In this document: one piece after another, positions 11,781 through 59,359 of the stretch | Position numbering within the stretch: the first letter of the stretch is position 1 | Layout: every line of letters begins with the position of its first letter | Virus record (IMG/VR): IMGVR_UViG_2609460327_000001 | Span: 1-64,000 of that record | DNA from: a virus | Taxonomy: Duplodnaviria; Caudoviricetes | Strand: one strand, 5' to 3' | Length of the DNA: 64,000 bases | Program-made: the position numbers and the translations under genes | Notes under the pieces: generated by a model | Seen by the model: only the letters and a program-made list of their open reading frames with translations | The model's database searches: none | What the model was told of the DNA's origin: nothing

Positions 11781-12245
11781 TCAAAATGGTATTTCTGAAA
11801 GTTTACTATTAGCAGAAGCGATTTCAACCATAGGAATGCCGTATTGCACACTGATCCTGAACTCTTCAATCATTGCATCAATTAGCTCTGCAGGTATACC
11901 TTTCTCAAGGTATCCTGATACAGTGCCAACAGTTTTAGAATGATAAACCTGCTTATCTACAAAACGAGAATTTTTATTGTCTGCCTCTTTCACTTCACTG
12001 AGAACAACCATAAAAGGGGCAGGCGTATCTAATGACAATAATTCAGGACCTTCTTTTTTAAAGCGTAATGTAATCTTGTACCACTGTGAACTGATTAACA
12101 GTCTTCGATGCAATATTGTATAAGCTGCCGATTTTCGATCATCCTCAAACCAATTGCAAGTCAGCAGGTTTGAAATCGTTCTTGCAGAAATGTCCGTAGT
12201 TTGAAAAGGGAATTGATTATATAAATAAGCTTTCATAAGCTCCAT
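11781..12245 (-). CDS. Hypothetical protein with MELMKAY N-terminus
   Basis: GGAGG RBS 8 nt before ATG 12245. Confidence 0.7.
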   Translation of the reverse strand: MELMKAYLYNQFPFQTTDISARTISNLLTCNWFEDDRKSAAYTILHRRLLISSQWYKITLRFKKEGPELLSLDTPAPFMVVLSEVKEADNKNSRFVDKQVYHSKTVGTVSGYLEKGIPAELIDAMIEEFRISVQYGIPMVEIASANSKLSEIPF

Positions 12246-12348
12246 AGTATGGGCCTCCATTCAGTAACATAAGCTATTATAGCATGTTTTGAGCATAATA
12301 AAAGACGTTACAGGCAGAAAAATGTAACGTCTTACATTATGCAATGTT

Positions 12349-12861
12349 TTACTTCAATTTGCTGCGCATATGTTCACGTAGCTCTTCGAGATCAATATAG
12401 CCATCCGGTCGGATATCCATATCGTAAAAAGTGAAATCTAGAACAGCTTCTATCAGCATAGAAGGGGTGATTTTAGCCCCACCACGATATTGAGAATTTT
12501 CCGATGAAAAATTTTTAATAAATTTATCAATATCTTTATTATAGATTTGATAACTGCTGGTTGAAGGAACTTCACGATAGAGATCGTCAGGCAGCTCTGG
12601 ACGCTTAACAAACCGATGCTTGGCAGTGCTTGTCTCTTGCCTAGGAAGACGTGGACGAACTACCCTCTGTTCAGTCTGTCGTGTTGCTGCAACCTGAGAT
12701 TGGGCAGTTTCAATAATATCCTCTCGAATATTGCTTTCTTCTTGTTCTGGCTCAGGTGTTGGTGGCTGAGCTGCTGCAGTTCCCATTTTCGGTTTTTGCG
12801 GCTGAAGCCGGCTCTGCCCACTTGCGTTCGCGGCCGCTCTCATTAAATCTTGTGCACCCAT
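12349..12861 (-). CDS. Hypothetical protein, disordered N-terminus plus small C-terminal domain (possible partition adaptor/DNA-binding protein)
   Basis: GAGGAGG RBS; own promoter; architecture only. Confidence 0.6.
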   Translation of the reverse strand: MGAQDLMRAAANASGQSRLQPQKPKMGTAAAQPPTPEPEQEESNIREDIIETAQSQVAATRQTEQRVVRPRLPRQETSTAKHRFVKRPELPDDLYREVPSTSSYQIYNKDIDKFIKNFSSENSQYRGGAKITPSMLIEAVLDFTFYDMDIRPDGYIDLEELREHMRSKLK

Positions 12862-12882
12862 ATGTACACCTCCTCAGTCATG

Positions 12883-12923
12883 ATTATAAATAAGCATGAG
12901 GCTGAGGTCAATATTTCATATGA
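12883..12923 (-). promoter_or_regulatory. Consensus sigma-A promoter with an adjacent TCATATGA site
   Basis: TTGACC-17-TATAAT (12911-12883); TCATATGA at 12916-12923. Confidence 0.65.
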
Positions 12924-12948
12924 TATAGGATATACGAATTGTGTCGAA

Positions 12949-13632
12949 TTATGCCGCTGGCATGGCGCTCTTAACGATTTTATGAACAGTTTGCAATTCA
13001 TCAATGTCCAATTCGGTTAGATAATTAAAGCTGTGGCCTACTGCGCTCGCACATTGGTTAAAGACATTCTGGACATTGATATCCATATTGTACATTTGTT
13101 GCAAATAAAACGTGATTTGACTCTCAATATCAATGCGTCTTTTTGCTATATTTTCTGTCTCAATTACTTTTTGCATTTCCTCTTGGCTTGCGCTGCCGCT
13201 GTGATAGCCAAGATTATCTAAAGCACGGCCACTAGCCGACTCTTCACAGTTTTCTACCCAAGCATATTGATCCGCTTGGCGACCACCGGCGATAGAAAGA
13301 GAATAGCCGATAGAATCTGCACCTAAGAGCAGACCAATACTTGAAGCAACGATCGCTGCGTTATCCGGAGTAACGGACTTACATAGTTCTGTTACTGCAG
13401 TAACCGCTTCGGGTGAAAGGATGCGCTTTTCCTTATCCAGCCAGATTAAGGAAATATAGACTACATAATGATTAGCATAGTTAACGCCAGATATTTGCAT
13501 TGGATAAATGATGGAATTGGGATAATCAATACGTAAGCGTTCTTTTCTTCGTTTAACAGTCTCATATTTAGATGGATCAAAGCTGGAGCGTTTTCCTCCG
13601 TTGCCGTTATTGTATGCCACTATATAATTCAC
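12949..13632 (-). CDS. Rad52/Sak-like single-strand annealing protein
   Basis: YETVKRR..YPNS and VENCEESASGRALDNLG motifs. Confidence 0.65.
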   Translation of the reverse strand: MNYIVAYNNGNGGKRSSFDPSKYETVKRRKERLRIDYPNSIIYPMQISGVNYANHYVVYISLIWLDKEKRILSPEAVTAVTELCKSVTPDNAAIVASSIGLLLGADSIGYSLSIAGGRQADQYAWVENCEESASGRALDNLGYHSGSASQEEMQKVIETENIAKRRIDIESQITFYLQQMYNMDINVQNVFNQCASAVGHSFNYLTELDIDELQTVHKIVKSAMPAA

Positions 13633-13871
13633 TCCTTATTTTCGGGATATAGAATGGCCATAATAGATACCAAGTAATCGTGCATCATTATCCCATAAAT
13701 AGCACTAGAATCGAACTGAGGGTATTGAGAAATAGCATGCCCTATCGCCTCTTTAAGCTTCTCCTCTTTACGCTCTGCTTTTTCAGCACGCTCTCTTAAT
13801 TCTTCAACATAGGCGCATATATCACAACGAAGCCGGCCGTGATCTTCGCACACTTCGTCCTTGTCTTTCAT
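13629..13871 (-). CDS. Hypothetical protein
   Basis: Tightly packed phage-type ORF, CxxHxxxxCxxC. Confidence 0.6.
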   Translation of the reverse strand: MKDKDEVCEDHGRLRCDICAYVEELRERAEKAERKEEKLKEAIGHAISQYPQFDSSAIYGIMMHDYLVSIMAILYPENKE

Positions 13872-13883
13872 AATTCACCGCCC

Positions 13884-14117
13884 TTAATAGCCGCCATTAT
13901 TTTCACAAAGCCACTCTTTAAGCGCAATCTGCGCTTTCGCAAAGCAGAGCTGCATATCGCAATCATCCTGAACATGAATTACATTTTGGCCATGCATTTC
14001 ATGTGCAGGTTTATAGCCAATGGTTATAATCCAGCCCACTATGCTTGAGTGGTAAATATCAAGCGTCCAGGAAAAATTATGACTTATGCTGTTATAAAAT
14101 AAGAGAAAGTCATTCAT
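13884..14117 (-). CDS. Hypothetical protein
   Basis: GGAGGAG RBS; conserved-looking ENNGGY end. Confidence 0.65.
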   Translation of the reverse strand: MNDFLLFYNSISHNFSWTLDIYHSSIVGWIITIGYKPAHEMHGQNVIHVQDDCDMQLCFAKAQIALKEWLCENNGGY

Positions 14118-19691: not shown

Positions 19692-20747
19692 TTACTCCTT
19701 GCGGACAGCAAGTAAGAACAGCTCTTTAACTTTTTCGCCAATGTCTTTACGTAGTTCTGTTTTCTGTAAAAACATAGTATGGGCTGGTTGCTCAACAAAA
19801 TTATCAACAGTAAAAAGTAAACTTTGATATATGTTTTTTGCTTTTTGCTCTACATCATTATTTTTAGTTTTCTTCGAACTCATTTCATTAATTGTTTCGT
19901 TCATGGTAGTGATTTGATCTTGTAAATTTTTAATTTGTTCGAGATTTTGATTTCTCTCTTCGATCAAAGCTTGAATAAATTTTTTCTCTTCGATGGTAGA
20001 TAATTGATCAGTTAAATCTTTAAAAAACATTTGTATTTGAGTTAAGCTTTCAACAGCAACAGATAAAATTTCTCGATCATCTTTCTCCAACATTGTTTGA
20101 GCAGATGATGATCTTGATTTAGCCTGAAACTCTCTAATTTGATCATCTAATGATTTCTCTCTCTCGACTATAGAACGTGTAAAAGAATCATCTTCATTAT
20201 GATTATTACTATCGTCTTCGTCTTTAATTTTATCTAAATAATCATCTTGTGAAGGAATGTTTTGTTTTAAAATTTCCTCATTTTTTAAATCAGGAGTCTC
20301 ATTTATCTGCTCATTATTTTCAAAATTCGAAGTTTCTTTAATAATTGTATTTTCATCTATATGTTCATTATTTTTAGTTTCATTCTCTGCTGAGATTATG
20401 GATTTTGGTAAATTAAGATGATTCATACTGTCTTTAATTTTTTGCATAAAGTTTTCATCATTTATTGCAGGATATACCAATTTAGACTTAGGTTCTTCTT
20501 TTTGACTCATTAAACTAGAAGACAGACGATATATTTTTTTCTTATGTGGTCCTGTTCGTCCAGTATCAACTAATTTCCCTTCATCCGAAAGCACACGTAA
20601 ATGATGTGTGATTGAAGCGGTTGAGACTTCAAATTCCTGACTAAGAACGGTTGGAGATACATGAATATCTCCAACATCATCAGCCATGGTTTTTAAATGT
20701 TCGAGTAGGGTCTTCCTATCCACCTTTTTTTGTGGTGCAGCACTCAT
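19692..20747 (-). CDS. Winged-HTH plus low-complexity linker plus coiled-coil protein
   Basis: LSQEFEVSTASITHHLRVLSDEGKL HTH; heptad-rich C-terminus. Confidence 0.7.
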   Translation of the reverse strand: MSAAPQKKVDRKTLLEHLKTMADDVGDIHVSPTVLSQEFEVSTASITHHLRVLSDEGKLVDTGRTGPHKKKIYRLSSSLMSQKEEPKSKLVYPAINDENFMQKIKDSMNHLNLPKSIISAENETKNNEHIDENTIIKETSNFENNEQINETPDLKNEEILKQNIPSQDDYLDKIKDEDDSNNHNEDDSFTRSIVEREKSLDDQIREFQAKSRSSSAQTMLEKDDREILSVAVESLTQIQMFFKDLTDQLSTIEEKKFIQALIEERNQNLEQIKNLQDQITTMNETINEMSSKKTKNNDVEQKAKNIYQSLLFTVDNFVEQPAHTMFLQKTELRKDIGEKVKELFLLAVRKE

Positions 20748-23180: not shown

Positions 23181-24767
23181 CTATCTTCTTTTTGCTTGAT
23201 CAATTAGATCAGGATAAAGCAATTGAAGCTGGCGATAGACTTCTTCAAATGTCTCTCGAATATCCCACTGTGCTTCTTCCGTTGTTCTCAGATTGATAAG
23301 GTGGTAAGCCTCCCACAAATCAAAGTGAGCCACAATGCGGCGGCGGTGAGTGTTTAAGACAACATATGGAGCTGTGTAGTCATGTCCTGCTGTGCTTAGT
23401 AACTTGTCATGAAGCGCTTCAGCTTTCTCTGCAAGATCAAAGAGCAATCCTTGCAAACCTGCTTCAACAATACGAGGCGGAATCGTAACGCCGTTATAAG
23501 GAGAAGGCTGGTTATAAATAAAGTCAGTCTTTCTGTTATGACGAAGCAGCTGATGCCAGTTAGCCTCAGACACAAGAAGTTCGAAGGCGAAGTCGATCCC
23601 ACGGAAAGAATCCGGTGGCGTGTCATGCTTGCCGATTTCAAAAAGCATTTCTTTAATAATCTCAGTTGGATTAGTAATATTCTCTGCTCGACGCATAGCT
23701 TCCTCATAAGGAATGCCACTCTCTTGCACAATAGCTTCGGCAACAATTGTTTCTATCGCCTTTTTAGGCGAAGGTCCTTTGATTAATGTCGCCAGATTAC
23801 TTACCTTGGTTGCACCAGGTTGATCAGCAAAACGATGCTTAATACGCTGCTTGCTGTTCACTTTATATTGAGAAGGTACAGCATGCTTTAGCAATGTTGG
23901 GAGAACTTTAGTGATCTCCGTTTTCAGATCGCCAGCAAGCTTAATAACCTCTGGATAGGAGCTTGTGTAGAGATTGGCGATGCCATCCCGCCAAGTACGT
24001 CCGTTTGCCGTCATGCCCAGCTGAGTATGCATAGCCAGTGGAAGTGCGTATCGCGCATCTTCAAATGCAAGCTTCATGAGATTAGCTTCATATTTTTCTT
24101 GCCATCCAAAAGATTGAGGAAAAATTTTGCCCTTATCTTTTTCGATAAGATGCTTAAATACGCCATCAATTAATTGCTCGAAAACATCGTAACATTCGTT
24201 CATAAAGTCTTGGAACTCTTGCCAAAGCGGGTTAGACACCATGTCTCTAGTAATCCCATTAGGATTAGGAATCGACTTGGGCACCGGATTGTACCAATCG
24301 CCTCTCTGAGGCTTCTGATAGCGCTGAGAATACTCAGTAATGGAATAGAAGGTGTTAGACAGTTCCAGCTCTGCAGAAGCCAGTCTGGACACTTTCTCAA
24401 TGCCCACATGAGCATTGGCATGTTCCGCTACACTGCTGTGGCCATAAGACACAGTCCATTTCTCGTGGAAGTCTTGGGCTTTCTTTGAAAGCTTCTCGAA
24501 GGAATCCTTACCTTGATAATCGCTTGCATTGATGAGCCCATCTTGAATAGCTTTTAGTAAGTGTTCCTTGAATGACTTTGGTGATCGGCTCACCCAGGCA
24601 AACAAGACAGCTATAAACTCCTCTGTGAGATTCGTTACCGCATATACATTTCCATCCGGATTTGTCACAAATGGAGTAATATCCGGTAGTGCTGTCAGAT
24701 CAAGTTCTTGCTCTTTAGCAACCGTCTGACTTTTTGTAGTGCGTCTAGTTCTTTTTTGTTCGGTCAC
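23181..24767 (-). CDS. thyX: FAD-dependent thymidylate synthase, long two-domain form
   Basis: YGHSSVAEH, EYSQRY, EDARYALP, QLLRH and LRTxxxAQWDIR motifs. Confidence 0.85.
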   Translation of the reverse strand: MTEQKRTRRTTKSQTVAKEQELDLTALPDITPFVTNPDGNVYAVTNLTEEFIAVLFAWVSRSPKSFKEHLLKAIQDGLINASDYQGKDSFEKLSKKAQDFHEKWTVSYGHSSVAEHANAHVGIEKVSRLASAELELSNTFYSITEYSQRYQKPQRGDWYNPVPKSIPNPNGITRDMVSNPLWQEFQDFMNECYDVFEQLIDGVFKHLIEKDKGKIFPQSFGWQEKYEANLMKLAFEDARYALPLAMHTQLGMTANGRTWRDGIANLYTSSYPEVIKLAGDLKTEITKVLPTLLKHAVPSQYKVNSKQRIKHRFADQPGATKVSNLATLIKGPSPKKAIETIVAEAIVQESGIPYEEAMRRAENITNPTEIIKEMLFEIGKHDTPPDSFRGIDFAFELLVSEANWHQLLRHNRKTDFIYNQPSPYNGVTIPPRIVEAGLQGLLFDLAEKAEALHDKLLSTAGHDYTAPYVVLNTHRRRIVAHFDLWEAYHLINLRTTEEAQWDIRETFEEVYRQLQLLYPDLIDQAKRR

Positions 24768-25068
24768 GATCGGTCTCCTTCGCTTTTTTAATAAAAACTA
24801 CATCCTTGTACATCATCATGAAACCAACACCCATCAATATACCGTTAATTATGTCTAAAACCGATTCTGCTGTTGATACTGCTCTCATGTTCCAGCCAAA
24901 GGCGGCAGTATACATAATATTTACTATAAACATTGTTGCAGCCAGAAGGGCTCCTCTATCTCGATGCCGCTCTGATCCAGGCTTCCGAGGCAAAACCTTC
25001 GAAAGCCCAATCAGAACACTTACAGAAAAAGATAAATAGACATAAGTCCAAAATATAGTGTCACTCAT
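24745..25068 (-). CDS. Three-TM membrane protein
   Basis: Three hydrophobic segments. Confidence 0.7.
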   Translation of the reverse strand: MSDTIFWTYVYLSFSVSVLIGLSKVLPRKPGSERHRDRGALLAATMFIVNIMYTAAFGWNMRAVSTAESVLDIINGILMGVGFMMMYKDVVFIKKAKETDRDRTKKN

Positions 25069-25274
25069 TAGTCTAGGCTGTTGAACACATCAGTGATGCC
25101 GCCACCATCGTAATACTCAGGTTTTTTGCCTTCATCAACCATTGTGCCATTTTGAGACAAATGAACTTCGATATCCTTGGTGATCTTCGTGCAATCTGCA
25201 CCTTCACCATTCAAAACTTCAAATGCCACGCCGCCTTCTTTACCAATAGTAAACTTTACTTTTCTCTCTTGCAT
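25068..25274 (-). CDS. DUF2997-family protein
   Basis: F.I...G.V..EV....G..C...T..IE...KPEYY pattern. Confidence 0.75.
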   Translation of the reverse strand: MQERKVKFTIGKEGGVAFEVLNGEGADCTKITKDIEVHLSQNGTMVDEGKKPEYYDGGGITDVFNSLD

Positions 25275-25310
25275 GTTGAATACCTCCGATTTAATGAATA
25301 GTTTTATTAA

Positions 25311-25709
25311 TTAGGACCAAGTAGAAGCGACTAGCTCCAATTCTCCGGCATCGCTATGAGTGATGCTCTCGAAATCGACAGAGAAACCGTTAGATTCGCA
25401 CATATCAATAACCATGTACTTGTCATGCAGCTGAGCTACTTGATTAGTGAATTGCTTTTCAGAGAAGCCAGTCATAAACCAGTCAGCTACGCATTCGAGT
25501 TTGGTTTTTCCGTCAACAGCGTTCTCTTGGAAGCCGATTGGCTGCAGCTTTCCGTTTGTATCGACAACAGCCAGAACTACATTGCGAGACTGCTTGTAGT
25601 AGTCAATGATTGTCGTGTTTTCTTTGTATCCAAGGCCCATTTCAGTAAGAGCCTTCTTAACGAACTCGACATTATTTACTTCACATTTGTAAGCTTGAAA
25701 GTGAGACAT
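25311..25709 (-). CDS. DUF1257 (Ycf35-like) protein
   Basis: MSHF..KKAL..MG..IGF..ADW..GF.V..G.LELV..W pattern. Confidence 0.8.
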   Translation of the reverse strand: MSHFQAYKCEVNNVEFVKKALTEMGLGYKENTTIIDYYKQSRNVVLAVVDTNGKLQPIGFQENAVDGKTKLECVADWFMTGFSEKQFTNQVAQLHDKYMVIDMCESNGFSVDFESITHSDAGELELVASTWS

Positions 25710-25809
25710 ATTGATAATTCCTCCTAGGATATATTAAGTGCGCCCTAACCCCTCCGTCATGCGCTTGCCGTTGCGGCACCCAATTCGCGCCGTATGGTTC
25801 CCCAAAAAC

Positions 25810-26172
25810 TCAAAGATTGTATTTCTTGGCTATTTTCCGAAGCAGCTCTGCCCTGACTTGCTGAGATGCAACAACATCCTTATGAACAGCCGCAGGCATC
25901 TCATTCAGCTCTTCTTCGGAATAATCTTTTTCAATCAGGAACGTAGCTGTAGTCACAAGGTTATCAAGTACTTTCATAAATGATTTATCTACATGAGCAC
26001 AAATAACATTGTTGCTTAGTTCACTGTGTGATTTCTGCATATGCTGTTCGTACTCTTTCAATTCATTCAGTGCATATTCAATAGCTTTATCGATCGTTTT
26101 TCTTGGATCTATGTGGAGTGGCTTAGAAAGTTCCATTGCCTTTTTACGTTGTTCTTCACGATCATAGGGCAT
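25810..26172 (-). CDS. Hypothetical helical protein
   Basis: Within the operon. Confidence 0.7.
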   Translation of the reverse strand: MPYDREEQRKKAMELSKPLHIDPRKTIDKAIEYALNELKEYEQHMQKSHSELSNNVICAHVDKSFMKVLDNLVTTATFLIEKDYSEEELNEMPAAVHKDVVASQQVRAELLRKIAKKYNL

Positions 26173-26184
26173 ACATTCACATCC

Positions 26185-27837
26185 TTATTGAGAAAATTCA
26201 ATGTCATTATTTCCAAAGACACGGAATGTTGCGCCAGATTTGGTTTCTTCCGTTTTTCCGCCGCTATGAAGGAAGTCATGCTCGGTGCTAGAAACACATA
26301 CTGCAGAGTGTTTAGCCCATTCTCTCAGGTCATTAATAAGCTGAGGATTACGCTTCGCTAGTGGAACAATCTTGTTTGCTTGTTCTTCAAGATCAGATAC
26401 AGTGATGTAATGCGTTTCACGTTGCTCTTTTCTAAAAGCAGCATAAGCACGGCGACCAGCCTCAGAAACTGCCTGTTCGATCTCGGCACCAGTGAAATCT
26501 TTCATCTTCTCGGCAAGGTTAAGAATATCTAGCTTATTAAGTGTGCTGGGATGTTCAAAGTCATCGTTCGTGATTGAATACCCGCGTTTCTTTAGATGGA
26601 TAGCCAAAATCTCGGCACGCTCTTCCGTGTGTGGGAGACTAACAAACATAATTTCGTCAAACCGACCCGCACGAGTAAGCTCTGGTGGCAGCTTTGTAAT
26701 ATCATTCGCAGTAGCAATAACAAATACCGGTTTCTCTTTTTCAGAGAGCCAAGTCAAAATCTCTTGAACAACGCGGGATAGCGTACCAGAGTCTGATTTG
26801 TCTGAACTCGACATGCCCGACAAACCTTTCTCAAACTCATCCATCCAGAGAACGCAAGGCGATACTTGTTCAGACAGTTTTAGAGCACGAGATATATTTT
26901 TCTCGGACTGGCCAACTTTGGAATCCATGATGTCCGACATGTTCATCTTAAGCAGCGGAAGATTCCATTGATGAGCAATAGATTTAGCCGCCAAGGATTT
27001 ACCAGTACCCGGCACGCCAGCAAGGACTACACCACGTACCGGATCAACATTATACTGCTGCGCATCAGGATGGAATGCGTAGTAGGCATCTTCCGTCCAC
27101 TCTTTAAAACGATCCATCGCGCCTACATTATCCATATCGCCAAGCTTCGTGATGTATTCGAGCAAGCCTGTCTTTCTGATAACTTGCTCTTTTTCAGCTA
27201 CAATCTCTGCAAGGACGATCGCCTTATGTTTAGAGGTTGTCTTGCGCAGAATATTTGAAATCTCATGCTCGGTCATGCCAACTAAGGCATGGATAATTGC
27301 TTCATACTCTCGACCTTTAGGTGTGGGAAGGTCTTTGCTCTCCAAAAACTTGATGTTGCCATCCAGCAGAAACTTAACACGATCCCGATCAGGTAAATCA
27401 AAGTTAATTAGCGTTATAAGCTTTTCAAGTTCCAGTGGGATAGATGCTTCGGGAGAAGTTAAGATAATTGGTTTATAAAATTCAGTTTTCGATTCGAGAT
27501 AATCCCGTAATTTACGCTTTGCTTGAGCATTGGTCCAAATATCATGAAAATCACGAATTACATAAATGTTTTGCTCCCTGGCTTCAGCAATAATATCAAA
27601 AAGCTTCATAGGATTATCAGCCTTTGGTCCCTCGGCTGGTTTCCCGGTAATACCATCTACAAGACCAGAAGTAATTGACCAATAATACATGTTCGCATAA
27701 CCTTTTTGCTGAGCAATATGTTGCAAATTTTCTATGAAGCGTTGCTCTTCAAAAGTTTTAACAAGAATAGCTCTGTGCCTGGAGTTGAGAAGCACAGTAA
27801 GTTGATCCACAGATGATTGTTGAATAGCAGTTGACAT
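26185..27837 (-). CDS. Ycf46-like AAA+ ATPase
   Basis: GVPGTGKS, LWMDEFEK, ATAND, RAGRFDE, FTGAEIEQ; degenerate N-terminal AAA module. Confidence 0.9.
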   Translation of the reverse strand: MSTAIQQSSVDQLTVLLNSRHRAILVKTFEEQRFIENLQHIAQQKGYANMYYWSITSGLVDGITGKPAEGPKADNPMKLFDIIAEAREQNIYVIRDFHDIWTNAQAKRKLRDYLESKTEFYKPIILTSPEASIPLELEKLITLINFDLPDRDRVKFLLDGNIKFLESKDLPTPKGREYEAIIHALVGMTEHEISNILRKTTSKHKAIVLAEIVAEKEQVIRKTGLLEYITKLGDMDNVGAMDRFKEWTEDAYYAFHPDAQQYNVDPVRGVVLAGVPGTGKSLAAKSIAHQWNLPLLKMNMSDIMDSKVGQSEKNISRALKLSEQVSPCVLWMDEFEKGLSGMSSSDKSDSGTLSRVVQEILTWLSEKEKPVFVIATANDITKLPPELTRAGRFDEIMFVSLPHTEERAEILAIHLKKRGYSITNDDFEHPSTLNKLDILNLAEKMKDFTGAEIEQAVSEAGRRAYAAFRKEQRETHYITVSDLEEQANKIVPLAKRNPQLINDLREWAKHSAVCVSSTEHDFLHSGGKTEETKSGATFRVFGNNDIEFSQ

Positions 27838-27865
27838 GAATTAGTCCTCCTCAAGACTAGATAAA

Positions 27866-29895: not shown

Positions 29896-29912
29896 TACCT
29901 CACTCCTACAAT

Positions 29913-41562: not shown

Positions 41563-41573
41563 GATAATTCCTC

Positions 41574-42251
41574 CTAGTTGTTATTAATAAATAATCTAGA
41601 CCAATCACCAAATGTCGTATTCATTGGTGTTAGGATATCGTAATCAAATGGCTTGTTTTTAAACATGTCAAAGACATTATACAAGGTGTCTTTAATTTTG
41701 TTGGTTTCTCCGGAAAAATAAATATGATCATTATTAGGCACTTCACGCCATTGATAAGGGAATGTCTGCAACTGCACAAGATCATGAACCAACTCATTAG
41801 TCCAGTAGCAGAGCTTTCCACTATCGTAAACATTAGAATAAGGGAATCGGTATAGCTCAGACGTGTCTCTAAGGCTTAAGTCTTTATAAGCTGCAACATA
41901 TGCCGATATGAGTGTTTTACCAGCAACAGCAAAAGCAAAAACCATTTTTGGATATGGTATCGATTCGAAACTAAAATCATGATATTTAACATCATGGGTA
42001 GTTTCTTCTACTGTAATAAATAAATAGTTTGTTCCTTTTTCAGATTGAGCATATTTGGCTGTGTTTTGTGGAAGCGCAGGAGAAGTAAGAACCACTCTAT
42101 CAGATGTAAATTCTTTCCCTCCTGTTGATGATTGAAGCATATCAATAATTTGATCCGCATAAACATATTTCGTCGTTTTAACTCCATTATCTTCAATAAT
42201 TAAAAGCGGCATCTTTTCAGGATGAAGCTCGATCTTGACTGACATTTCCAT
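41574..42251 (-). CDS. Prokaryotic E2 family D (PRTRC protein B type)
   Basis: PYPKMVF..LYRFPYSNVYDSGKLC. Confidence 0.75.
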   Translation of the reverse strand: MEMSVKIELHPEKMPLLIIEDNGVKTTKYVYADQIIDMLQSSTGGKEFTSDRVVLTSPALPQNTAKYAQSEKGTNYLFITVEETTHDVKYHDFSFESIPYPKMVFAFAVAGKTLISAYVAAYKDLSLRDTSELYRFPYSNVYDSGKLCYWTNELVHDLVQLQTFPYQWREVPNNDHIYFSGETNKIKDTLYNVFDMFKNKPFDYDILTPMNTTFGDWSRLFINNN

Positions 42252-42758: not shown

Positions 42759-43100
42759 TTAAAAAAATTTTACTGGTTGTCGAACTCGCTGCATCTTTTT
42801 TAGCTCAAATATAAATTCGCGCATATATACATGTTGATAAATACTGTCTCTCAGCATATTGGGAGTATACTCCTCCCCATCTTCAAGGGTGGCAGTATAA
42901 TTAATCTCTTCGAATAGTCGTTTAATGCCTTCAAAGCTAATGTTATCAAGCTGCTCATCAGATACTGAGTTGTTATTAAAAATGACATTTGCAACTTTCA
43001 ATTCTTCTTCTTGATACTGGATATTATTGCTATTAATTGACTGAGTAGATAATGCGATTTCTAGTACACTACTATAATTAAAAAATTGTTCTTTAGGCAT
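42759..43100 (-). CDS. Hypothetical protein
   Basis: TAATG coupling. Confidence 0.65.
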   Translation of the reverse strand: MPKEQFFNYSSVLEIALSTQSINSNNIQYQEEELKVANVIFNNNSVSDEQLDNISFEGIKRLFEEINYTATLEDGEEYTPNMLRDSIYQHVYMREFIFELKKMQRVRQPVKFF

Positions 43101-43447
43101 TAGATCAACCCCCTGTTTTTTGCTTCTTCAATCATCAATAAATAAGTTTTGGATTTGCGAAGATATTCAGCAATAACATCCATCCTTATATTTTTAGCTT
43201 TATTGCGCCTGTATTTTTTACTCATAATTTGAGAAGCAAGCTCGCGAAGATCAATATCCTGCACTCTTCTTTCAGTTAGGCGAATACAATTTAAAAGATG
43301 ACTATCTGTCATATTGGCAGGCCGAATAACTAACCCCTTTTCTGTAGTCCAGAAGCCAATGAAATCCCCATTTTTAGCCTTCTGCAAATTGATTGAAGCC
43401 TGAAACTCACCGGGGTCTCGATAATGATAGGCTGTCATTAATTCCAT
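43100..43447 (-). CDS. Hypothetical protein with MELMTAY N-terminus
   Basis: WTT..G....NMTDSHLLNCI pattern. Confidence 0.7.
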   Translation of the reverse strand: MELMTAYHYRDPGEFQASINLQKAKNGDFIGFWTTEKGLVIRPANMTDSHLLNCIRLTERRVQDIDLRELASQIMSKKYRRNKAKNIRMDVIAEYLRKSKTYLLMIEEAKNRGLI

Positions 43448-53843: not shown

Positions 53844-54077
53844 CTAGAAATGATATTGCTCACAAGAGATAATTTCATCCTCATGAAGAAGAAGATCAAT
53901 GAGAAGAGTAGTCCCAGAAGCTAAATCGAAAGAGATAGCATAATCAAAGTGAAAGTTTTCACCTTCTCGTTTAGAAAAAGACGCCTGAATGTTTCTTTCT
54001 TTGGTGTCCTTGATGTTGTATAGTCGTCCTGGAATCATGAGAACTTTGTTTACTGGGTGTAGAATAGGTGGTTGCAT
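53844..54077 (-). CDS. Small beta-barrel-like hypothetical protein
   Basis: MIPGRLY pattern shared with the 57.4-58.7 kb array. Confidence 0.65.
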   Translation of the reverse strand: MQPPILHPVNKVLMIPGRLYNIKDTKERNIQASFSKREGENFHFDYAISFDLASGTTLLIDLLLHEDEIISCEQYHF

Positions 54078-54139
54078 GTAGAAAATCTCCTTTGAATTAG
54101 AAATAAAAAAGACTGCCTAAGTGGCAGCCGAAGGTAAAA

Positions 54140-54523
54140 CTATTCATCCATCTCGCCAATATCGACAGTTACTGTTGATATCTCATATCGATATATTGGA
54201 ACGCTTAATAATTTATAATTAAATTTGGCAGGCGAGTCTGGAAATGCTCTGAACATATTGCGCTTCTCGAAAATAACAATCTCATCATCACCATTATCTT
54301 TTCTGGTCAAAACAATATAATCCAGGCGATCTATGATGTCATATTCTATGAATGGAATGAGCTTATTTACAACTTCTTCGAAATACTTATGAATTGGATC
54401 AACAGTTATTACAGTAGCTCCATCGTGGGAAGTTAGACCATGATTTAGGTATTCATCAATCAAGTCATGCAGGAAATAATCTAAATCTAAATTGCTTACT
54501 GTCAAAAGAATCCGTCCCCTCAA
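54140..54523 (-). CDS. Hypothetical protein
   Basis: ORF followed by a terminator. Confidence 0.6.
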   Translation of the reverse strand: MRGRILLTVSNLDLDYFLHDLIDEYLNHGLTSHDGATVITVDPIHKYFEEVVNKLIPFIEYDIIDRLDYIVLTRKDNGDDEIVIFEKRNMFRAFPDSPAKFNYKLLSVPIYRYEISTVTVDIGEMDE

Positions 54524-54540
54524 AATAGAATAATTTACCT

Positions 54541-54972
54541 TTAAAACAATAGCATAGAATCATTCTGATTGGCAGTGCTAATCCAACCGCATTGATCCTC
54601 AAAATGAATAAGCTCAGCTTGATCAATTACGGATCCATCAAGAGTATGAAATTCTCGAGAACGGTAAGGATTATATCTTACTTGAACATTAAGATCTGCA
54701 GACTTGTCTGAATCAATAGCAACAAGAGTTCCGGAGAAGACAGCACAAACAGCTCGTTGTTTCTTCTCTTGAATAGAATCATATTTGCTCTGAATAATAC
54801 GAGAACGAGCCGACCTAATGGTGACTCGCTCTGCATAAGCCAATACTTTATTATATGTAGGACTCTTAGGCTGACGATCAAGAATACTGAATACACCTTT
54901 CTTATTCAGATTCACATAAACGTCAACACGCTGTCCTATAATTGGATTCCCATTTCGTATTTCCAATATCAT
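54541..54972 (-). CDS. Conserved phage hypothetical protein
   Basis: VY.NL.K..FSI..V.A...G..VRYNPY pattern. Confidence 0.75.
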   Translation of the reverse strand: MILEIRNGNPIIGQRVDVYVNLNKKGVFSILDRQPKSPTYNKVLAYAERVTIRSARSRIIQSKYDSIQEKKQRAVCAVFSGTLVAIDSDKSADLNVQVRYNPYRSREFHTLDGSVIDQAELIHFEDQCGWISTANQNDSMLLF

Positions 54973-54983
54973 ATGCTCCTTTA

Positions 54984-55238
54984 CTATACGGCAGCGCTGA
55001 TAAGCGCAGAGTCCACACGAATGATTGATTCATAAGAAAACTGGCAATTCACATCGAAAGTAATCTCACCTTCAGCAGTACGCTTTTCAGCATTATTCAT
55101 GCGGACAACATAAGGGAGGTTAGGGTCGATAAAACATTCACCAGTATATTGAGTTCCATTGATAACAGTAACCGTGTTGATCTTGCCAGGGGAGAGAAGA
55201 CTATCATAGCGGCGATCATAACCAAACATTAAATCCAT
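54984..55238 (-). CDS. Small beta-barrel-like protein with MDLMFGY N-terminus
   Basis: LSPGK..V..INGTQYTG. Confidence 0.7.
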   Translation of the reverse strand: MDLMFGYDRRYDSLLSPGKINTVTVINGTQYTGECFIDPNLPYVVRMNNAEKRTAEGEITFDVNCQFSYESIIRVDSALISAAV

Positions 55239-55273
55239 TCGACCACGTCCTTGTATGAAATAAAAAAGCTCAC

Positions 55274-55465
55274 CTATTGGCGAGCTTTAATCGTTGCTTG
55301 TATTCGTTTATTAATTTCTTTTCTATTTCTGATAAAGGCACTGACATTAGAAGTGTCAACTCCAGGCAATGTTTGTTCAACATAATGACCGTTAGTGTGT
55401 CGATCAGCGGCTTTTTCTAATTCTTTGAAGCGTCGATCAAGTATTTCTTTGTCCATGTTAATCAC
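55274..55465 (-). CDS. Small hypothetical protein
   Basis: GAGG RBS; follows the GNAT gene. Confidence 0.6.
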   Translation of the reverse strand: MINMDKEILDRRFKELEKAADRHTNGHYVEQTLPGVDTSNVSAFIRNRKEINKRIQATIKARQ

Positions 55466-55470
55466 CTCTC

Positions 55471-55941
55471 TTATAAGTATACATTAACCAAATGCTGAGC
55501 GGTAGTCTCAGATACAATCATATCTTGGCCACTTATAGGAACCGCACCTAAAGATGAGAAATAATTGACCAGTTTAGTCTTAGCTTTCAGGCCAATAAAA
55601 CCTTCGTGACCTAGTTCCATGCTTCGTTTACAGCAAAATGCAAATAAATGAGCTCCAATATGAGAAAACTGTTTATTAATCGGATCCCTATTACGGGGTG
55701 AGCTTTCGATTAAAAGCATAAAAACATGATCTTCTTTCTTTTCCAGTGCAATGGCGCCTTGTATTGTACCACTAGGATCACCTGTAACAACCATTTTATA
55801 CACTTCTACTTTAGGAGCGTTAAAATAAATATTCCAGTCAAAAGAAGGCTCCCATCCAGTTTTATTCATAAATTTGACATCTGCTTTGGTTAAAGGAAGG
55901 AAGGATACGGGATATTCTTCACCATTTCTATGTAGAATCAT
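55471..55941 (-). CDS. GNAT-fold acetyltransferase-like protein
   Basis: IQGAIAL..LIESSP.N..IGAHLFAF..GFIGL.AKT.LV.YF..LGA. Confidence 0.7.
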   Translation of the reverse strand: MILHRNGEEYPVSFLPLTKADVKFMNKTGWEPSFDWNIYFNAPKVEVYKMVVTGDPSGTIQGAIALEKKEDHVFMLLIESSPRNRDPINKQFSHIGAHLFAFCCKRSMELGHEGFIGLKAKTKLVNYFSSLGAVPISGQDMIVSETTAQHLVNVYL

Positions 55942-56104
55942 TTTGCTAAAAGAACTCCTTTCATAAGCGGAAAATGCGGTTCTTTGATCATATTAGCATA
56001 ATAAATATGCTTAATGATTTATTTCACTAATTAAATTATTAATGTAATGAAATAAATAATGAACATAATAAAAGCCGCCCAATAACGAGCGGCAATGAAA
56101 CACA

Positions 56105-56509
56105 TTACATAGAAAAAGATAATCTAGGCGGCATCATATAATGGACGCCTACACGTAAAGCCATCTTAGCTTTATCTATATCCTTATAGTATCCAGATAT
56201 GCGATCGTGGTGAAGGCAGACATCAAGTTCAAAATCATAAGAGTCATAGCCAATATAATATCCTGCGGCTGAGTGCATAATCTTTTCAGGGGAGACGAGA
56301 TTACCATAAACATCAAAGTTGTAACGGTATGTATTATCTAAGTATTCAAACAGTAAAGATTTAGCTTTAGTAACTGAATAGTCAGGCTCATAAATAAAGA
56401 TGCCTTCTGATTCAAGTATGTCCATCAAAAGACTGCGGGAGATATTCTGAGCGGCAGGGTAGAGAGGTAAAATAGAATCTAAAAGTTCTACAACTTGCAT
56501 AGTATTCAT
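56105..56509 (-). CDS. Hypothetical protein
   Basis: HSAAGYYIG..RISGYY motif; GGAG RBS. Confidence 0.7.
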   Translation of the reverse strand: MNTMQVVELLDSILPLYPAAQNISRSLLMDILESEGIFIYEPDYSVTKAKSLLFEYLDNTYRYNFDVYGNLVSPEKIMHSAAGYYIGYDSYDFELDVCLHHDRISGYYKDIDKAKMALRVGVHYMMPPRLSFSM

Positions 56510-56575
56510 ATGTATAGTCTCCAATCTAGTTAAAATGTAATGCGTTAAATTATATATCGGATAACATAATAATAT

Positions 56576-56604
56576 CATAAAGACCTCGGAGCCGTTAGGC
56601 TCCT
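56576..56604 (-). repeat. Hairpin-box junction element, copy 7
   Basis: GGAGCC-TAAC-GGCTCC-GAGGTCTTTATG. Confidence 0.65.
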
Positions 56605-57046
56605 ACAAGGCACCGACATAGTTGTAGTAATCGCCTTCAGAAGCAAAGGCGCCACCAAATGGACCGTCATTCTCATCATCGCATGGTGTGCCAAACTGAG
56701 AGATATATTCATGACCATCAGCATACCAAGCGCGAAGACCAAGCATGTATAAATCGTTATTAACCACAAAGCCGCCAAACTCATCATCAAGCTCTTGTTT
56801 TAAAGCAGGATTAGCATCTGGATAGTATTTCAAATCAATTTCAGGCTTGCTGATAACCGGTACGATAAGAGCAGGATCATAGCCTTGATCACGCATCTTG
56901 TTGATGATGTCATTACAGCATGCTTCTGCCCACATCTCAATACGAAGATCAGAAGAGCTGAAGCACTCAGGATTGTGTGAAGATGCTTTGTAGCCATAAA
57001 ACATCATAGAAATCACATGTTCAAAGTTTTCGTTATGTATACGCAT
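56603..57046 (-). CDS. Hypothetical acidic protein
   Basis: GGAGG RBS before ATG 57046. Confidence 0.7.
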   Translation of the reverse strand: MRIHNENFEHVISMMFYGYKASSHNPECFSSSDLRIEMWAEACCNDIINKMRDQGYDPALIVPVISKPEIDLKYYPDANPALKQELDDEFGGFVVNNDLYMLGLRAWYADGHEYISQFGTPCDDENDGPFGGAFASEGDYYNYVGAL

Positions 57047-57073
57047 TATAAATAGCCTCCATATGTATAAATT

Positions 57074-57103
57074 CAAAAAGCCCCCGAAGCCGTTAGGCTT
57101 CCG
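57074..57103 (-). repeat. Hairpin-box junction element, copy 8
   Basis: GAAGCC-TAAC-GGCTTC-GGGGGCTTTTTG. Confidence 0.75.
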
Positions 57104-57186
57104 AGAGCGATAGTTAATTGATTGCTATAAAGAATGCGAAAGCTCAATATCATTTGGCGCCGTTCCGAAGGATCGGCAAAAGAAAA

Positions 57187-57405
57187 TTAAAGATCAAATA
57201 GGCGATTATCACTATATAAGATACCTAGCTCTTTATCGCTATGGTATAGCTTCTTACCATACTCATAGCCAAGCTTATACTGAGGATCCTCAGTATATAC
57301 GCTAGGGTAGAGGGAGACATAGCCATAGCAATAATGATAAGCATCAACTACACCATTATAATACTCCTTAGTATTCTCCTTATAAGCAGACATCAGCTCC
57401 ATCAT
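57187..57405 (-). CDS. Tyr-rich small protein, (M)MELMSAY N-terminus
   Basis: Last gene of the coupled array. Confidence 0.65.
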   Translation of the reverse strand: MMELMSAYKENTKEYYNGVVDAYHYCYGYVSLYPSVYTEDPQYKLGYEYGKKLYHSDKELGILYSDNRLFDL

Positions 57406-57710
57406 GGCCCACTCCAAAATGGTGGATACATAATACCTACTATGTCAAACTCTCGAATATAGTGTTGATTAGAAGTACTCTCATCGTGAATCACAATGTA
57501 TTTAGAAATTAAATCTTCGTTAACCTCCTGAATAACGCCAGTTGCATAGGATCTGGATATCGTCTTATTATCTAAATCTACGTCATGATAATGTATCACA
57601 CGTACAAAATCACCTATATAGAAGTCGGCATCTTGAAATGTAATGCGATTCATTATAGGGGGAGAAAAGGTAAAACCAGTATTCTCTAAATAGACATTCA
57701 TTAATTCCAT
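57402..57710 (-). CDS. Sm/SH3-like small protein, MELMNVY N-terminus
   Basis: IGDFVRV..TGVIQEV..IVI..I...DIVGI. Confidence 0.7.
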   Translation of the reverse strand: MELMNVYLENTGFTFSPPIMNRITFQDADFYIGDFVRVIHYHDVDLDNKTISRSYATGVIQEVNEDLISKYIVIHDESTSNQHYIREFDIVGIMYPPFWSGP

Positions 57711-57979
57711 CAGGCGCCTCCATGAAGTTTGACATTATAGATATTTCCTTCGTATAGAGATATATGTCCATGGTTGGATCGAGGACCATCATCCGGATCT
57801 CGATATATAATTCGAAACATCATACGTTCATGCTGTGAATCGTCATCCCTGTGCATATACTGAGCAATATACTTTATTCCAGGCCGGTCATAGTAGTATT
57901 CGAACTCATAGACTAAGCCTGGAACCATATCTTCTGGTTCTATATGTTTGCGTAGGCGATAACTAGTCATTAATTCCAC
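57710..57979 (-). CDS. Small beta-barrel-like protein, (V)MELMTSY N-terminus
   Basis: GTG 57979 with RBS; MVPGLVYEF. Confidence 0.7.
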   Translation of the reverse strand: MELMTSYRLRKHIEPEDMVPGLVYEFEYYYDRPGIKYIAQYMHRDDDSQHERMMFRIIYRDPDDGPRSNHGHISLYEGNIYNVKLHGGA

Positions 57980-58206
57980 TCCCAACACTCCTTTATGTTA
58001 GATAGTGGTATGGAACAAGAATTAACTTCATGAAGCATGTTATCTCGGCCATCAAAAGAGACAAGTGCAAATGTAAGAGTGATTCCATCTTCGGTGGCAG
58101 CCGCGATCATGCCCAGATAATAATCATTGCTATAGGTAACAAATACATATTCATCACCTATAGCATACTCAAGCATGGTTCTAAGGTAAGGAGCAATCAG
58201 TTCCAT
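57970..58206 (-). CDS. Sm-like small protein, MELIAPY N-terminus
   Basis: IGDEYVF..YLGMI....DGITL..IPLSNI. Confidence 0.7.
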   Translation of the reverse strand: MELIAPYLRTMLEYAIGDEYVFVTYSNDYYLGMIAAATEDGITLTFALVSFDGRDNMLHEVNSCSIPLSNIKECWEWN

Positions 58207-58426
58207 AGATTTCATACTCCTTTATAGAGTCAACATGTAATGACATTTCTGATGTTGACTTAATATTACGAGGATCATCACATAAAGATATGTCTACCAT
58301 GCCAAGCTTTAAAAAGTTGCGGTCTAGGGAAACTACAGTTCCGAGCAACTGATCACCGTTGTTTAGTAACTTATAGTCACATCCTATATGAAGCAACGAT
58401 TTAATATACGATGAAATGAGCTCCAC
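58181..58426 (-). CDS. Sm-like small protein, (V)MELISSY N-terminus
   Basis: IGCDYKL..NGDQLLGTVVSLDRNFLKL..LHVDSI. Confidence 0.7.
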   Translation of the reverse strand: MELISSYIKSLLHIGCDYKLLNNGDQLLGTVVSLDRNFLKLGMVDISLCDDPRNIKSTSEMSLHVDSIKEYEIYGTDCSLP

Positions 58427-58428
58427 GA

Positions 58429-58671
58429 TCAATCACTCTCCATATAAATACTTAATTGATCTATCTCGTCTGGTGCAAACATCATCCCTATTCTGCAGTA
58501 CTGATTATTGATAGTATACGTGTGAAAGATCAAAACTTGAGAATCATGTCTATGCTTATGGAAAACAGCAATATGATACTGACCTTCATAATAAAAAGAA
58601 TAGGTATTGCCAGGGATAAGCTGATGCGCAGCAACAATAGTTCGTTCAAAGTAAGGAGACATAAGCTCCAT
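58429..58671 (-). CDS. Small beta-barrel-like protein, MELMSPY N-terminus
   Basis: GAGGTG RBS; LIPGNTYSF. Confidence 0.7.
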   Translation of the reverse strand: MELMSPYFERTIVAAHQLIPGNTYSFYYEGQYHIAVFHKHRHDSQVLIFHTYTINNQYCRIGMMFAPDEIDQLSIYMESD

Positions 58672-58684
58672 TATATACACCTCA

Positions 58685-58945
58685 TTAGCGCTCTTTTACA
58701 CTACCAGGATCCGCTCTGCGCAGGATCTCATCATAGACAGCGTATGCATATTCCCAGTCTTCGAATTTCTTATCATATATAGAGATGGTTTCCCATCCTC
58801 GCCAGCCACCAACATCACTCCAATAGTCTTTTGAAACAATGATTCGAGCCGGTTTAGGGAGAATATCCCCAGTCCTTTGAATCTGAGAGTAATGCTTAAC
58901 GCTATCTTTAGTGAAAAAATGTCTCTTTATAGGCTTAGCACCCAT
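58685..58945 (-). CDS. Hypothetical protein
   Basis: GGAGG RBS. Confidence 0.7.
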   Translation of the reverse strand: MGAKPIKRHFFTKDSVKHYSQIQRTGDILPKPARIIVSKDYWSDVGGWRGWETISIYDKKFEDWEYAYAVYDEILRRADPGSVKER

Positions 58946-58956
58946 AGCAATACCTC

Positions 58957-59154
58957 CTATAGGTGCCTTCTTGTAGCATGACCAGCTTCAATAAGTTTAT
59001 TAAGATAGCGTAGCTGCTGCGCTGCATAGTATGGATCATCACTATCACTAAGCCTATTCTTTATATCTTGCAGGGCAATCAGCGGGAAATCATATTCACC
59101 AATCAGCTTATTTATCTCAGCTGATACATACTCATGAGTAATCTCTTGACTCAT
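58957..59154 (-). CDS. Hypothetical protein
   Basis: AAGGAAG RBS; EYDFP..ALQDI..RLSD..Y..QQLRYL. Confidence 0.65.
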   Translation of the reverse strand: MSQEITHEYVSAEINKLIGEYDFPLIALQDIKNRLSDSDDPYYAAQQLRYLNKLIEAGHATRRHL

Positions 59155-59155
59155 A

Positions 59156-59359
59156 TTATCTTCCTTTCTTAATAAGATTATCAAGCTCTCTACTGATATT
59201 ATCGAGAGCTTGGCTTTCTCTGGTCTGAGCATCATGTATGCGCTTAGTTGATCGGCGTATAGATAGAATATTGATTACGGCAATGGCCGCAATGGCAATA
59301 GATATTACAGATATAACAGTCGAGACCCAGAGTATAGGGCTCATAAGCATCAACTCCAA
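59156..59359 (-). CDS. Single-TM protein
   Basis: Hydrophobic helix plus coiled coil; start uncertain. Confidence 0.6.
   Translation of the reverse strand: MELMLMSPILWVSTVISVISIAIAAIAVINILSIRRSTKRIHDAQTRESQALDNISRELDNLIKKGR

Follow-up and report, generated by a model that had tools for sequence, protein, structure and literature searches.

Twenty-one proteins, most of them small, that are encoded by a 206,307-bp virus record (IMGVR_UViG_2609460327_000001 from IMG/VR, here called G000) share an N-terminal tag, M-E-L-φ-x-x-Y, where φ is a hydrophobic residue, and another hydrophobic residue often follows the tyrosine. We analyzed the tag in the first 64,000 bases of this record (bases 1-64000, or "the window"), in the rest of G000, and in related elements, including a sister plasmid from Paenibacillus urinalis (NZ_CP118109.1). 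The tag is very probably a portable short linear motif: it is selected as a peptide, it is bound to one clade of elements, it is exposed outside the folded body of the protein, and it would be read by one partner that is tied to the element.

The tag and its start codons

We scanned all six frames of the window for x-[ED]-L-[MI]-x-x-[YF] and found 20 matches. Ten of these are at ATG or GTG codons (7243, 12245, 43447, 55238, 57402, 57710, 57979, 58206, 58426, and 58671), and all ten are on the - strand and have tyrosine at position 7. An in-frame stop codon lies 1-16 codons before every one of the ten starts. In nine of the ten cases, there is a GGAG-type Shine-Dalgarno (SD) sequence 6-12 nt upstream, and the start at 7243 is 3 nt past the stop codon of the upstream gene. 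The original prediction had listed the other nine starts and had stated that most were supported by a ribosome binding site or by translational coupling; both statements hold, and the start at 7243 is new.

Six of the carriers form a contiguous run downstream of an RNA polymerase gene. Neighboring genes in the run are either 2 nt apart or overlap by 1-26 nt, in keeping with the original claim that they are consecutive and coupled. From first to last, they encode MELMSPY (58429..58671, 80 amino acids), (V)ELISSY (58181..58426, 81 amino acids, GTG start), MELIAPY (57970..58206, 78 amino acids), (V)ELMTSY (57710..57979, 89 amino acids, GTG start), MELMNVY (57402..57710, 102 amino acids), and MELMSAY (57187..57402, 71 amino acids). 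For the last of these, the RefSeq start in the sister plasmid is one codon upstream (MM-ELMSAY, 57405). The other carriers in the window are MDLMQSY (7085..7243), a cysteine-rich protein of 52 amino acids whose gene starts just past the stop codon of an SNF2 helicase and whose homologue in the P. urinalis plasmid is also tagged; MELMKAY (11781..12245, 154 amino acids), which is directly upstream of genes for a DUF6094 methyltransferase and an SNF2 helicase; MELMTAY (43100..43447, 115 amino acids); and MDLMFGY (54984..55238, 84 amino acids). A variant that was listed originally, MELMLMSP (59156..59359, - strand), does have that sequence, but it lacks Y7, has a TTG start, and belongs to a hydrophobic protein of the membrane type, so we do not count it as a carrier.

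Reading the starts by hand across all of G000 gave 21 carriers as well as two variants, which are VELFRPY (189232) and V-N-LMEVY (199986). Two neighboring carriers (155678 and 156428) share nine identical N-terminal residues and have an extra threonine before the core (M-T-ELMSRYQE), and one of them has a TTG start. So, the core of the tag need not start at residue 2. In the P. urinalis plasmid, the RefSeq coding sequence starts at the tag for 17 of the 20 tags that we checked. Of the remaining three, one starts a single codon earlier in RefSeq (MM-ELM), and the other two are small open reading frames (ORFs) that RefSeq does not list. In one wastewater metatranscriptome, two 151-nt contigs were identical to 57546-57845, which is too little to show transcription.

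The tag is far more common than expected. In the automatic ORF calls for G000, [ED]L[MILFV]xxY is at position 2 of 15 of 259 proteins, versus 0.049 expected given how often the motif occurs at internal sites (12 in 63,143 sites; P ~1e-32, binomial test). We also counted, without bias, all fixed-position residue triplets over positions 2-10. E2-L3-Y7 ranked first in all of the tagged genomes, with 5-16 instances; in the four tag-less relatives, the maximum for any triplet was 3-5.

The constraint is on the peptide

To describe codon usage, we tallied 29 tags, namely the 21 of G000 and 8 from a contig of another IMG/VR relative (G001). The glutamate is GAG in 14 cases and GAA in 13 (the other two are GAT, or aspartate), and the tyrosine is TAT in 22 cases and TAC in 7. 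The leucine uses all six of its codons (TTA 10, CTT 6, CTG 6, TTG 4, CTA 2, and CTC 1). Upstream of the tags, the DNA is conserved at the SD sequence only. Because synonymous codons vary and the upstream conservation is limited to the SD sequence, selection acts on the peptide, which is what the original prediction had proposed. It follows that the main constraint is neither a recombination cassette nor an mRNA element.

The tag is attached to unrelated proteins

As proposed originally, the tag is found on bodies that seem unrelated, and at the sequence level the carriers are not simply full-length paralogs. When the first 10 residues of the 21 carriers were removed, the best pair by blastp had E = 0.027, and when we compared the bodies to shuffled sequences, just 3 of 210 pairs had z > 4 (maximum 5.2). 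The carriers are mostly small (52-265 amino acids). None of the ten carriers in the window has a Pfam or PHROG family. Among all of the carriers, Pfam and PHROGs identified just one family (PF01503, on the protein described below), besides sub-threshold Pfam matches to families that counter the Thoeris defense system: Tad2-like for 67482-67865 (E = 0.0036) and Tad6 for 156428-156874 (E = 0.0057). A search of 5.8 billion proteins with the carrier at 57402-57710 found only itself.

The carrier at 188034 of G000 is a PRA-PH/MazG-like enzyme (PF01503) whose domain begins at residue 21. Most of its listed homologues (about 100 of 120) begin directly at the domain, without any extension. Five of the listed homologues (including the query) fit the tag, and about five more have variants of it (such as MS-ELVGAY); these are the homologues nearest to the carrier and are mostly from contigs of ~200 kb. 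In the AlphaFold2 model of the carrier (pLDDT 94.8), residues 1-13 are unstructured, and the first ten residues have a pLDDT of 59. By these comparisons, at least one known domain has acquired the tag as an addition. In the model of the carrier at 11781-12245 (mean pLDDT 78.6), the tag is predicted to form a separate helix at residues 2-10 (the first 10 residues have a pLDDT of 58), which is followed by a linker and then the body. Foldseek found no matches for this model at E ≤ 0.001 in PDB or BFVD, and the ESM Atlas had nothing at or above 0.8, with every TM score below 0.5.

The tag is confined to one clade and drifts by lineage

We scanned relatives of G000 with uniform rules: a start codon, [EDN]-L-[MILVFAT]-x-x-Y, an ORF of at least 40 amino acids, and an SD sequence or coupling. 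This identified 108 tags in seven elements, with 8-24 tags in each. There are 21 in G000, 19 in the P. urinalis plasmid, 8 and 6 in the two contigs (G001 and G002) of the IMG/VR relative, 24 in a plasmid of P. rhizovicinus, 13 in a 198-kb contig of Alicyclobacillus shizuokensis, 8 in a plasmid of B. licheniformis, and 9 in a 260-kb plasmid of B. thuringiensis. Four other relatives have no tags: a contig from a metagenome-assembled genome (MAG; its capsid protein is 64% identical), the Moorella phage, phage 0305phi8-36, and a pBtic235-type plasmid. The capsid protein is at least 78% identical in the seven tagged elements and 46-64% identical in the four tag-less relatives. By the triplet count over positions 2-10, none of the four tag-less genomes has a substitute N-terminal motif of similar abundance. 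The tagged clade comprises undescribed ~200-kb phage-plasmids, of the myovirus type, from Paenibacillus, Bacillus, and Alicyclobacillus.

As a negative control, we scanned IMG/VR for the SD sequence plus the tag pattern, which gave mostly single chance matches: among 116 loci (1.02 Mb), none besides the sister contig G002 had more than one tag. In the whole genome of the Alicyclobacillus, 16 of the 23 pattern matches are on the 198-kb contig of the element, and just 7 are in the other 3.4 Mb, compared to 8 for the reversed pattern. So in the one host genome that we examined, the chromosome is at the background level and has no client proteins, and the enrichment over background lies in the element.

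Where carriers of G000 have homologues in other elements, the tag is kept. This was true for 42 of 42 pairs, including all 23 pairs with under 60% identity, and in some pairs the tag is retained at 25-31% identity; the peptide is under purifying selection. Position 4 varies between lineages instead. It is methionine in 31 of the 40 tags of G000 and the P. urinalis plasmid, but in none of the 54 tags of four other lineages, where it is valine, isoleucine, or alanine, even in orthologous genes. Since methionine is a rare residue with a single codon, and it is held in ~30 unrelated genes of one lineage, the tags seem to be adapted to one shared binding pocket. And since position 4 shifts in all of the carriers of a lineage, the receptor may co-evolve with the tag. 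The presence, enrichment, peptide-level constraint, portability, and clade restriction of the tag are established by these data, as is this drift, and we infer that all of the carriers share one reader. Among 108 tags, 67 have a hydrophobic residue at position 8, and the residues beyond it are polar.

The set of carriers changes quickly, and most carriers are specific to a lineage. Just 2 of the 21 carriers in G000 have homologues in at least five lineages, versus 45 of 156 other genes of matched size, and the carrier at 11781-12245 is the only one with homologues in all six of the other tagged lineages. Carriers cluster at conserved sites whose content changes; for example, the site that follows the RNA polymerase contains 6 carriers in G000 and 12 in the plasmid of P. 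rhizovicinus. In all seven elements, tagged genes are directly after the gene for DNA polymerase III alpha, and tagged genes also adjoin genes for RNR, MazG, and a PD-(D/E)XK nuclease. Two carriers (155678 and 156428) are within the block of structural genes. Tagged genes also precede the methyltransferase/SNF2 pair in all of the tagged elements. In the window, this pair (7247-11772, - strand) is the DUF6094 methyltransferase followed by a 1,081-amino-acid SNF2 helicase, with a small tagged gene on either side, and this layout is kept in all of the tagged lineages.

Candidate readers

If the reader is encoded by the element, it might have the same distribution as the tag. We compared every gene of G000 to the six tagged and four tag-less relatives, and we found 20 untagged genes that are present in all of the tagged elements and in none of the tag-less ones. 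One of these (12349..12861, - strand, 170 amino acids) adjoins the carrier that is found in every lineage; it has no Pfam family and is a candidate by its distribution. Another encodes an acidic protein of 417 amino acids and lies between the terminase and the portal; its family has 22 representatives among 1.84 billion proteins. Several others are small proteins encoded among recombination genes, and none of those has an informative family. The co-distributed genes among the replication and recombination genes include an OB-fold protein (37482-37823) and helix-turn-helix (HTH) proteins (19692-20747 and 34074-34316).

The original prediction had suggested that the AAA, E1/E2, or GNAT enzymes of the element might act on the tag. 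The AAA+ ATPase (26185..27837, - strand) is a single-ring protein that resembles Cdc48, VAT, and PAN: its best matches in PDB are VAT and Cdc48 (E ~1e-49), and it also matches the PAN and FtsH families. It is present in all of the tagged lineages (58-98% identity), but also in the tag-less MAG (44%). The E1/E2 genes (40314-42251) were rejected because just three of the six tagged lineages have homologues, namely G001/G002 and the plasmids of P. urinalis and B. licheniformis. The tag-less pBtic235-type plasmid has homologues too. The supposed GNAT (55471-55941), which has no match in Pfam, was rejected as well, since it has homologues in just two of the six tagged lineages.

The S8 subtilase (191849-192742 of G000) has 297 amino acids, with its domain at 41-251, and is of the intracellular type; from reading its N-terminus, it lacks both a signal peptide and a large prodomain. 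Homologues are present in all six tagged lineages, with a tagged gene within ~1 kb upstream in each, and in 9 of the 10 relatives overall (among the tag-less ones, these are the MAG, the Moorella phage, and the pBtic235 type). The sliding clamp is weakened as a candidate because it is also found in the tag-less MAG and because DNA polymerase III alpha ends in QFQVEFS, which we take to resemble the classical beta-clamp hexapeptide. Peptides that bind the beta clamp are of the Q-L-x-L-F or Q-x-x-L-x-F type. The tag has a different hydrophobic spacing and is not a member of this group, and the clamp probably reads the classical-looking end of the polymerase rather than the tag. The single tag-like match inside the polymerase is a conserved motif of its fold and is found in tag-less relatives too.

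Some features of these genes are of separate interest. A conserved [DK]-[YF]-x-V is found in a short extension at the N-terminus of the subtilase. The AAA+ ATPase is part of a conserved block (23181-29931, - strand) that also encodes a radical-SAM protein, a 393-amino-acid protein with a weak match to OspG-like kinases, three small proteins (120, 132, and 68 amino acids), and a 528-amino-acid fusion of ThyX. The E1/E2 genes (- strand) encode ThiF (E1-like) and Prok-E2_D, with a gene for a 141-amino-acid protein in between.

What the tag might do

Our preferred explanation, which we hold tentatively, is that the tag is a leader that targets proteins to the capsid and works much like the leader on the internal proteins of T4 or the signal at the N-terminus of DarB from phage P1. 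The tag would dock diverse accessory proteins (probably for host takeover or anti-defense) to a component inside the head as it assembles. The docked proteins would be packaged and then delivered along with the DNA, and the tag may or may not be cleaved off after packaging. Put more broadly, the tag could plausibly be part of a code for addressing proteins, in which a label on ~9% of the genes, with one co-evolving receptor that is encoded by the element, delivers a changing set of effectors to the virion or to another destination; we would not bet heavily on this either. We favor packaging because carriers are in hotspots of turnover, because they are biased towards accessory genes, and because two of them are in the structural block. 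The co-distributed gene for the 417-amino-acid protein in the head module also supports this, and the sub-threshold matches to Tad2-like and Tad6 are weak hints in the same direction.

The leader of the T4 internal proteins is the closest analogue, and it is the only published case we found of unrelated small phage proteins that share just an N-terminal leader. In T4, this leader directs packaging into the head, according to excerpts from two reports (PMC12373910, PMC3012670). The N-termini of the three proteins (ipI-III, or Ip1-Ip3) have M-K-T-x-x-E-F in common, and their bodies are unrelated. Like the tag, this is a short leader at the extreme N-terminus with about seven residues, a spacing of fixed, variable, and fixed positions, and an aromatic residue at position 7, and the carriers are small proteins that do not look essential and are encoded in fast-changing loci. 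So, the analogy that was drawn originally holds for the layout. It does not hold for the sequence: none of the three T4 proteins fits M-[EDN]-L-φ-x-x-Y, and only M1 agrees. Also, G000 does not belong to the Straboviridae, and its nearest capsids are from plasmids of Bacillales, Moorella phage MTATph1, and 0305phi8-36. T4 has three carriers, while the tagged genomes have 8-24 each.

DarB of P1 joins methyltransferase and helicase activities in one protein, and two of the carriers in the window flank the pair of genes for a methyltransferase and an SNF2 helicase. Excerpts from a study of P1 indicate that the 30 residues at the N-terminus of DarB are enough to direct it to the capsid, so that P1, a myovirus whose prophage is also a plasmid, has an N-terminal signal for entry into the head (PMC9024508). 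Within those same excerpts, the N-termini of the Dar proteins have no consensus (PMC9024508), unlike the strict consensus of our carriers.

Besides the mismatch to the T4 leader, several results count against a role in packaging. Across the 108 tags, there is no conserved site of the protease type at positions 8-12; G000 does have a weak match to a head protease (79798-81237). Many of the carriers are in operons for DNA metabolism, often for replication, which is another difference from T4, and one carrier is an ordinary enzyme. The relatives with homologous head genes (0305phi8-36, the Moorella phage, the pBtic235 type, and the MAG) lack the tag. When we compared the helicase and methyltransferase that are flanked by carriers to the phage collection with tblastn, no P1 record was found. 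Finally, the charge of the carriers does not differ from that of other small proteins (the median isoelectric points are 5.5 and 5.8).

Among the alternatives, the tag might be a signal for processing or turnover, that is, a pro-peptide or degron for a protease or unfoldase of the element, which would time the activity or lifetime of the accessory proteins. Subtilisins prefer a large hydrophobic residue at P1 and a hydrophobic residue at P4, and φ4-x-x-Y7 suits this preference, so the S8 subtilase, which is in all six tagged lineages near a tagged gene, could cleave the bond that follows Y7, which would then be P1, with position 4 at P4. The AAA ATPase is of the classical-clade unfoldase type, is conserved in the tagged lineages, and could thread a protein from its N-terminus. 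But both enzymes also occur in tag-less relatives. There is also a precedent for short N-terminal peptides that interact with these proteases: according to excerpts from PMC6220982, intracellular subtilisin proteases (ISPs) are blocked by a short N-terminal peptide, [LVI]-[IFLV]-P-[YFH], in the active-site cleft. Like this LIPY/F pro-peptide, the tag is short, N-terminal, and hydrophobic-aromatic, and G000 encodes a protease of the intracellular type. The ISP motif, however, is one residue shorter than L-φ-x-x-Y, requires a proline (which the tag has at position 6 in just 9 of 108 cases), and acts in cis on the protease itself, so the tag is not an instance of it. Overall, a role in processing or turnover seems unlikely. 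We think it is more improbable still that the tag tethers small accessory factors to a hub for the replication, recombination, or transcription of the element (the sliding clamp, the polymerase, a helicase, the RNA polymerase, or another of the co-distributed proteins), like a PIP-box or a clamp-binding peptide. The spacing of φ4-x-x-Y7-φ8 does resemble the core of the PIP-box, the conserved places of tagged genes (after DNA polymerase III alpha, before the methyltransferase/SNF2 pair, beside RNR, MazG, and the nuclease, and after the RNA polymerase) would suit docking, and several of the 20 co-distributed genes (the OB-fold and HTH proteins) are among replication and recombination genes. Yet the clamp is also in the tag-less MAG and probably reads the C-terminus of the polymerase instead, the tag-like match inside the polymerase is shared with tag-less relatives, and tandem arrays of small proteins with fast turnover are not expected for parts of the replisome.

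Instead of a partner from the element, the tag might bind a conserved protein of the Bacillales (a chaperone, a protease adaptor, or a factor associated with the ribosome) that the element exploits. E2, L3, and Y7 are kept in elements from Paenibacillaceae, Bacillaceae, and Alicyclobacillaceae, as a common host ligand would predict. But the lack of an N-terminal excess in the Alicyclobacillus chromosome implies that such a host factor has no clients of its own, the pBtic235 type and 0305phi8-36 are from the same groups of hosts and lack the tag, and position 4 differs between two elements from Paenibacillus (methionine versus valine or isoleucine), so we see just a slim chance of this. It is very unlikely that the first seven codons act during translation, via the nascent peptide or the initiation region (by stalling or as an expression ramp). 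The fixed position at the extreme N-terminus and the coupling of many carriers to an upstream gene would fit, but synonymous codons are chosen freely, which excludes an mRNA signal, one or two extra residues before the glutamate are tolerated (MT-ELMSRY, MS-ELVGAY, and MSK-ELVQAY), and the combination of an invariant Tyr7 and a position 4 that drifts across whole lineages is more typically seen in binding peptides. Least probable of all, and by our estimate extremely so, is that the carriers are one diverged family whose best-conserved part is the N-terminus, or that the tag arose by chance. The enrichment excludes chance. Five or six of the tandem genes at 57187-58671 encode proteins of comparable length (71-102 amino acids) that share what looks by eye like a beta-rich pattern, and there are weak pairs among them (58206/58426, z = 4.0; 57979/58671, E = 0.042), so these six genes may be structural paralogues of each other. 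Across G000, though, the carriers range from a MazG-like four-helix enzyme to a 265-amino-acid protein that is Walker A-like, a 52-amino-acid cysteine-rich protein, and mixed alpha/beta proteins, and the ~100 listed MazG-like homologues without the tag do not fit with a single family either.

Implications

We found no description of the tag in the literature on capsid targeting, packaged or injected proteins, 0305phi8-36, or pBtic235, and this search did not cover supplementary tables. A shared leader on unrelated phage proteins is already known from T4; what is new is the sequence, the range of hosts, the number of clients, and the lineage-wide drift. If the tag is an address label, then it marks the cargo or effectors of an undescribed clade of ~200-kb phage-plasmids, whose hosts are Paenibacillus, Bacillus licheniformis, B. 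halotolerans, B. thuringiensis, and Alicyclobacillus, and which have been deposited only as 'plasmid unnamed'. The label would then point to about 100 candidate proteins for host takeover or anti-defense, much as the internal proteins of T4 were catalogued by their leader, and it would be the first such system in phages of Gram-positive bacteria, with far more clients than in T4. The lineage-wide shift at position 4 is a natural experiment that could help to find the receptor, and a portable tag of seven residues could serve to load foreign proteins into particles. Even if the function is timed proteolysis or docking to a hub, a strict motif on unrelated proteins implies a new recognition module.

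The element and its relatives

G000 is 43% G+C, with a completeness of 100% according to CheckV, and almost every long ORF in the window is on the - strand. The RNA polymerase upstream of the tandem carriers (60892-63981, - strand; the ORF may extend to 64524, which would give 1,210 amino acids) is a single-subunit enzyme with the RdRP fold (PF05183, YonO-like). Its gene adjoins a point at ~65.6 kb where the coding strand switches, and it has homologues in all of the tagged lineages. We found no close relatives when we compared the protein and its alignment to metagenome and genome collections, and tblastn against phages gave a single weak match. Similarly, megablast of 54000-60000 of the window against the phage collection found no match. 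Other genes in the window encode two SNF2 helicases, the DUF6094 methyltransferase, ThyX, DnaG primase, the beta clamp, RecA, and the ThiF/Prok-E2 pair. The + strand arm past the window encodes ParM, the large terminase, the portal, the weak match to a head protease, an HK97-type capsid protein, the tail sheath, several proteins of 1,700-2,800 amino acids, DNA polymerase III alpha, RNR, and the S8 subtilase.

The capsid protein of G000 is 98.6% identical to that of 'plasmid unnamed1' of P. urinalis (NZ_CP118109.1), 82-86% identical to those of plasmids of ~200-260 kb from P. rhizovicinus, B. thuringiensis, B. halotolerans, and B. licheniformis, 61% identical to that of Moorella phage MTATph1, and 46-48% identical to those of Bacillus phage 0305phi8-36 and pBtic235-type plasmids. 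Abstracts in the literature describe the pBtic235 plasmid as a circular jumbo prophage. Because the relatives of its capsid are ~200-kb plasmids and pBtic235 is called a jumbo prophage, we classify G000 as a jumbo phage-plasmid of the myovirus type, from a clade that has no members among the deposited phages. The "plasmids" that carry genes for ParM, terminase, portal, capsid, and sheath are jumbo phage-plasmids as well. G000 is a mosaic near-twin of the circular P. urinalis plasmid (214,846 bp): many proteins are 100% identical, and others are 40-90% identical.

DNA polymerase III alpha, which is a single ORF in G000 (196512-199967) that ends in the clamp-binding peptide mentioned above, is split in G002 into two ORFs that are ~1.2 kb apart. 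It is split likewise in 0305phi8-36 and in the pBtic235-type plasmid, which suggests an intervening element (an intron or an intein). And the sister plasmid from P. urinalis has genes for flagellin and a carbon-storage regulator (121049-122348 of NZ_CP118109.1) within the element.

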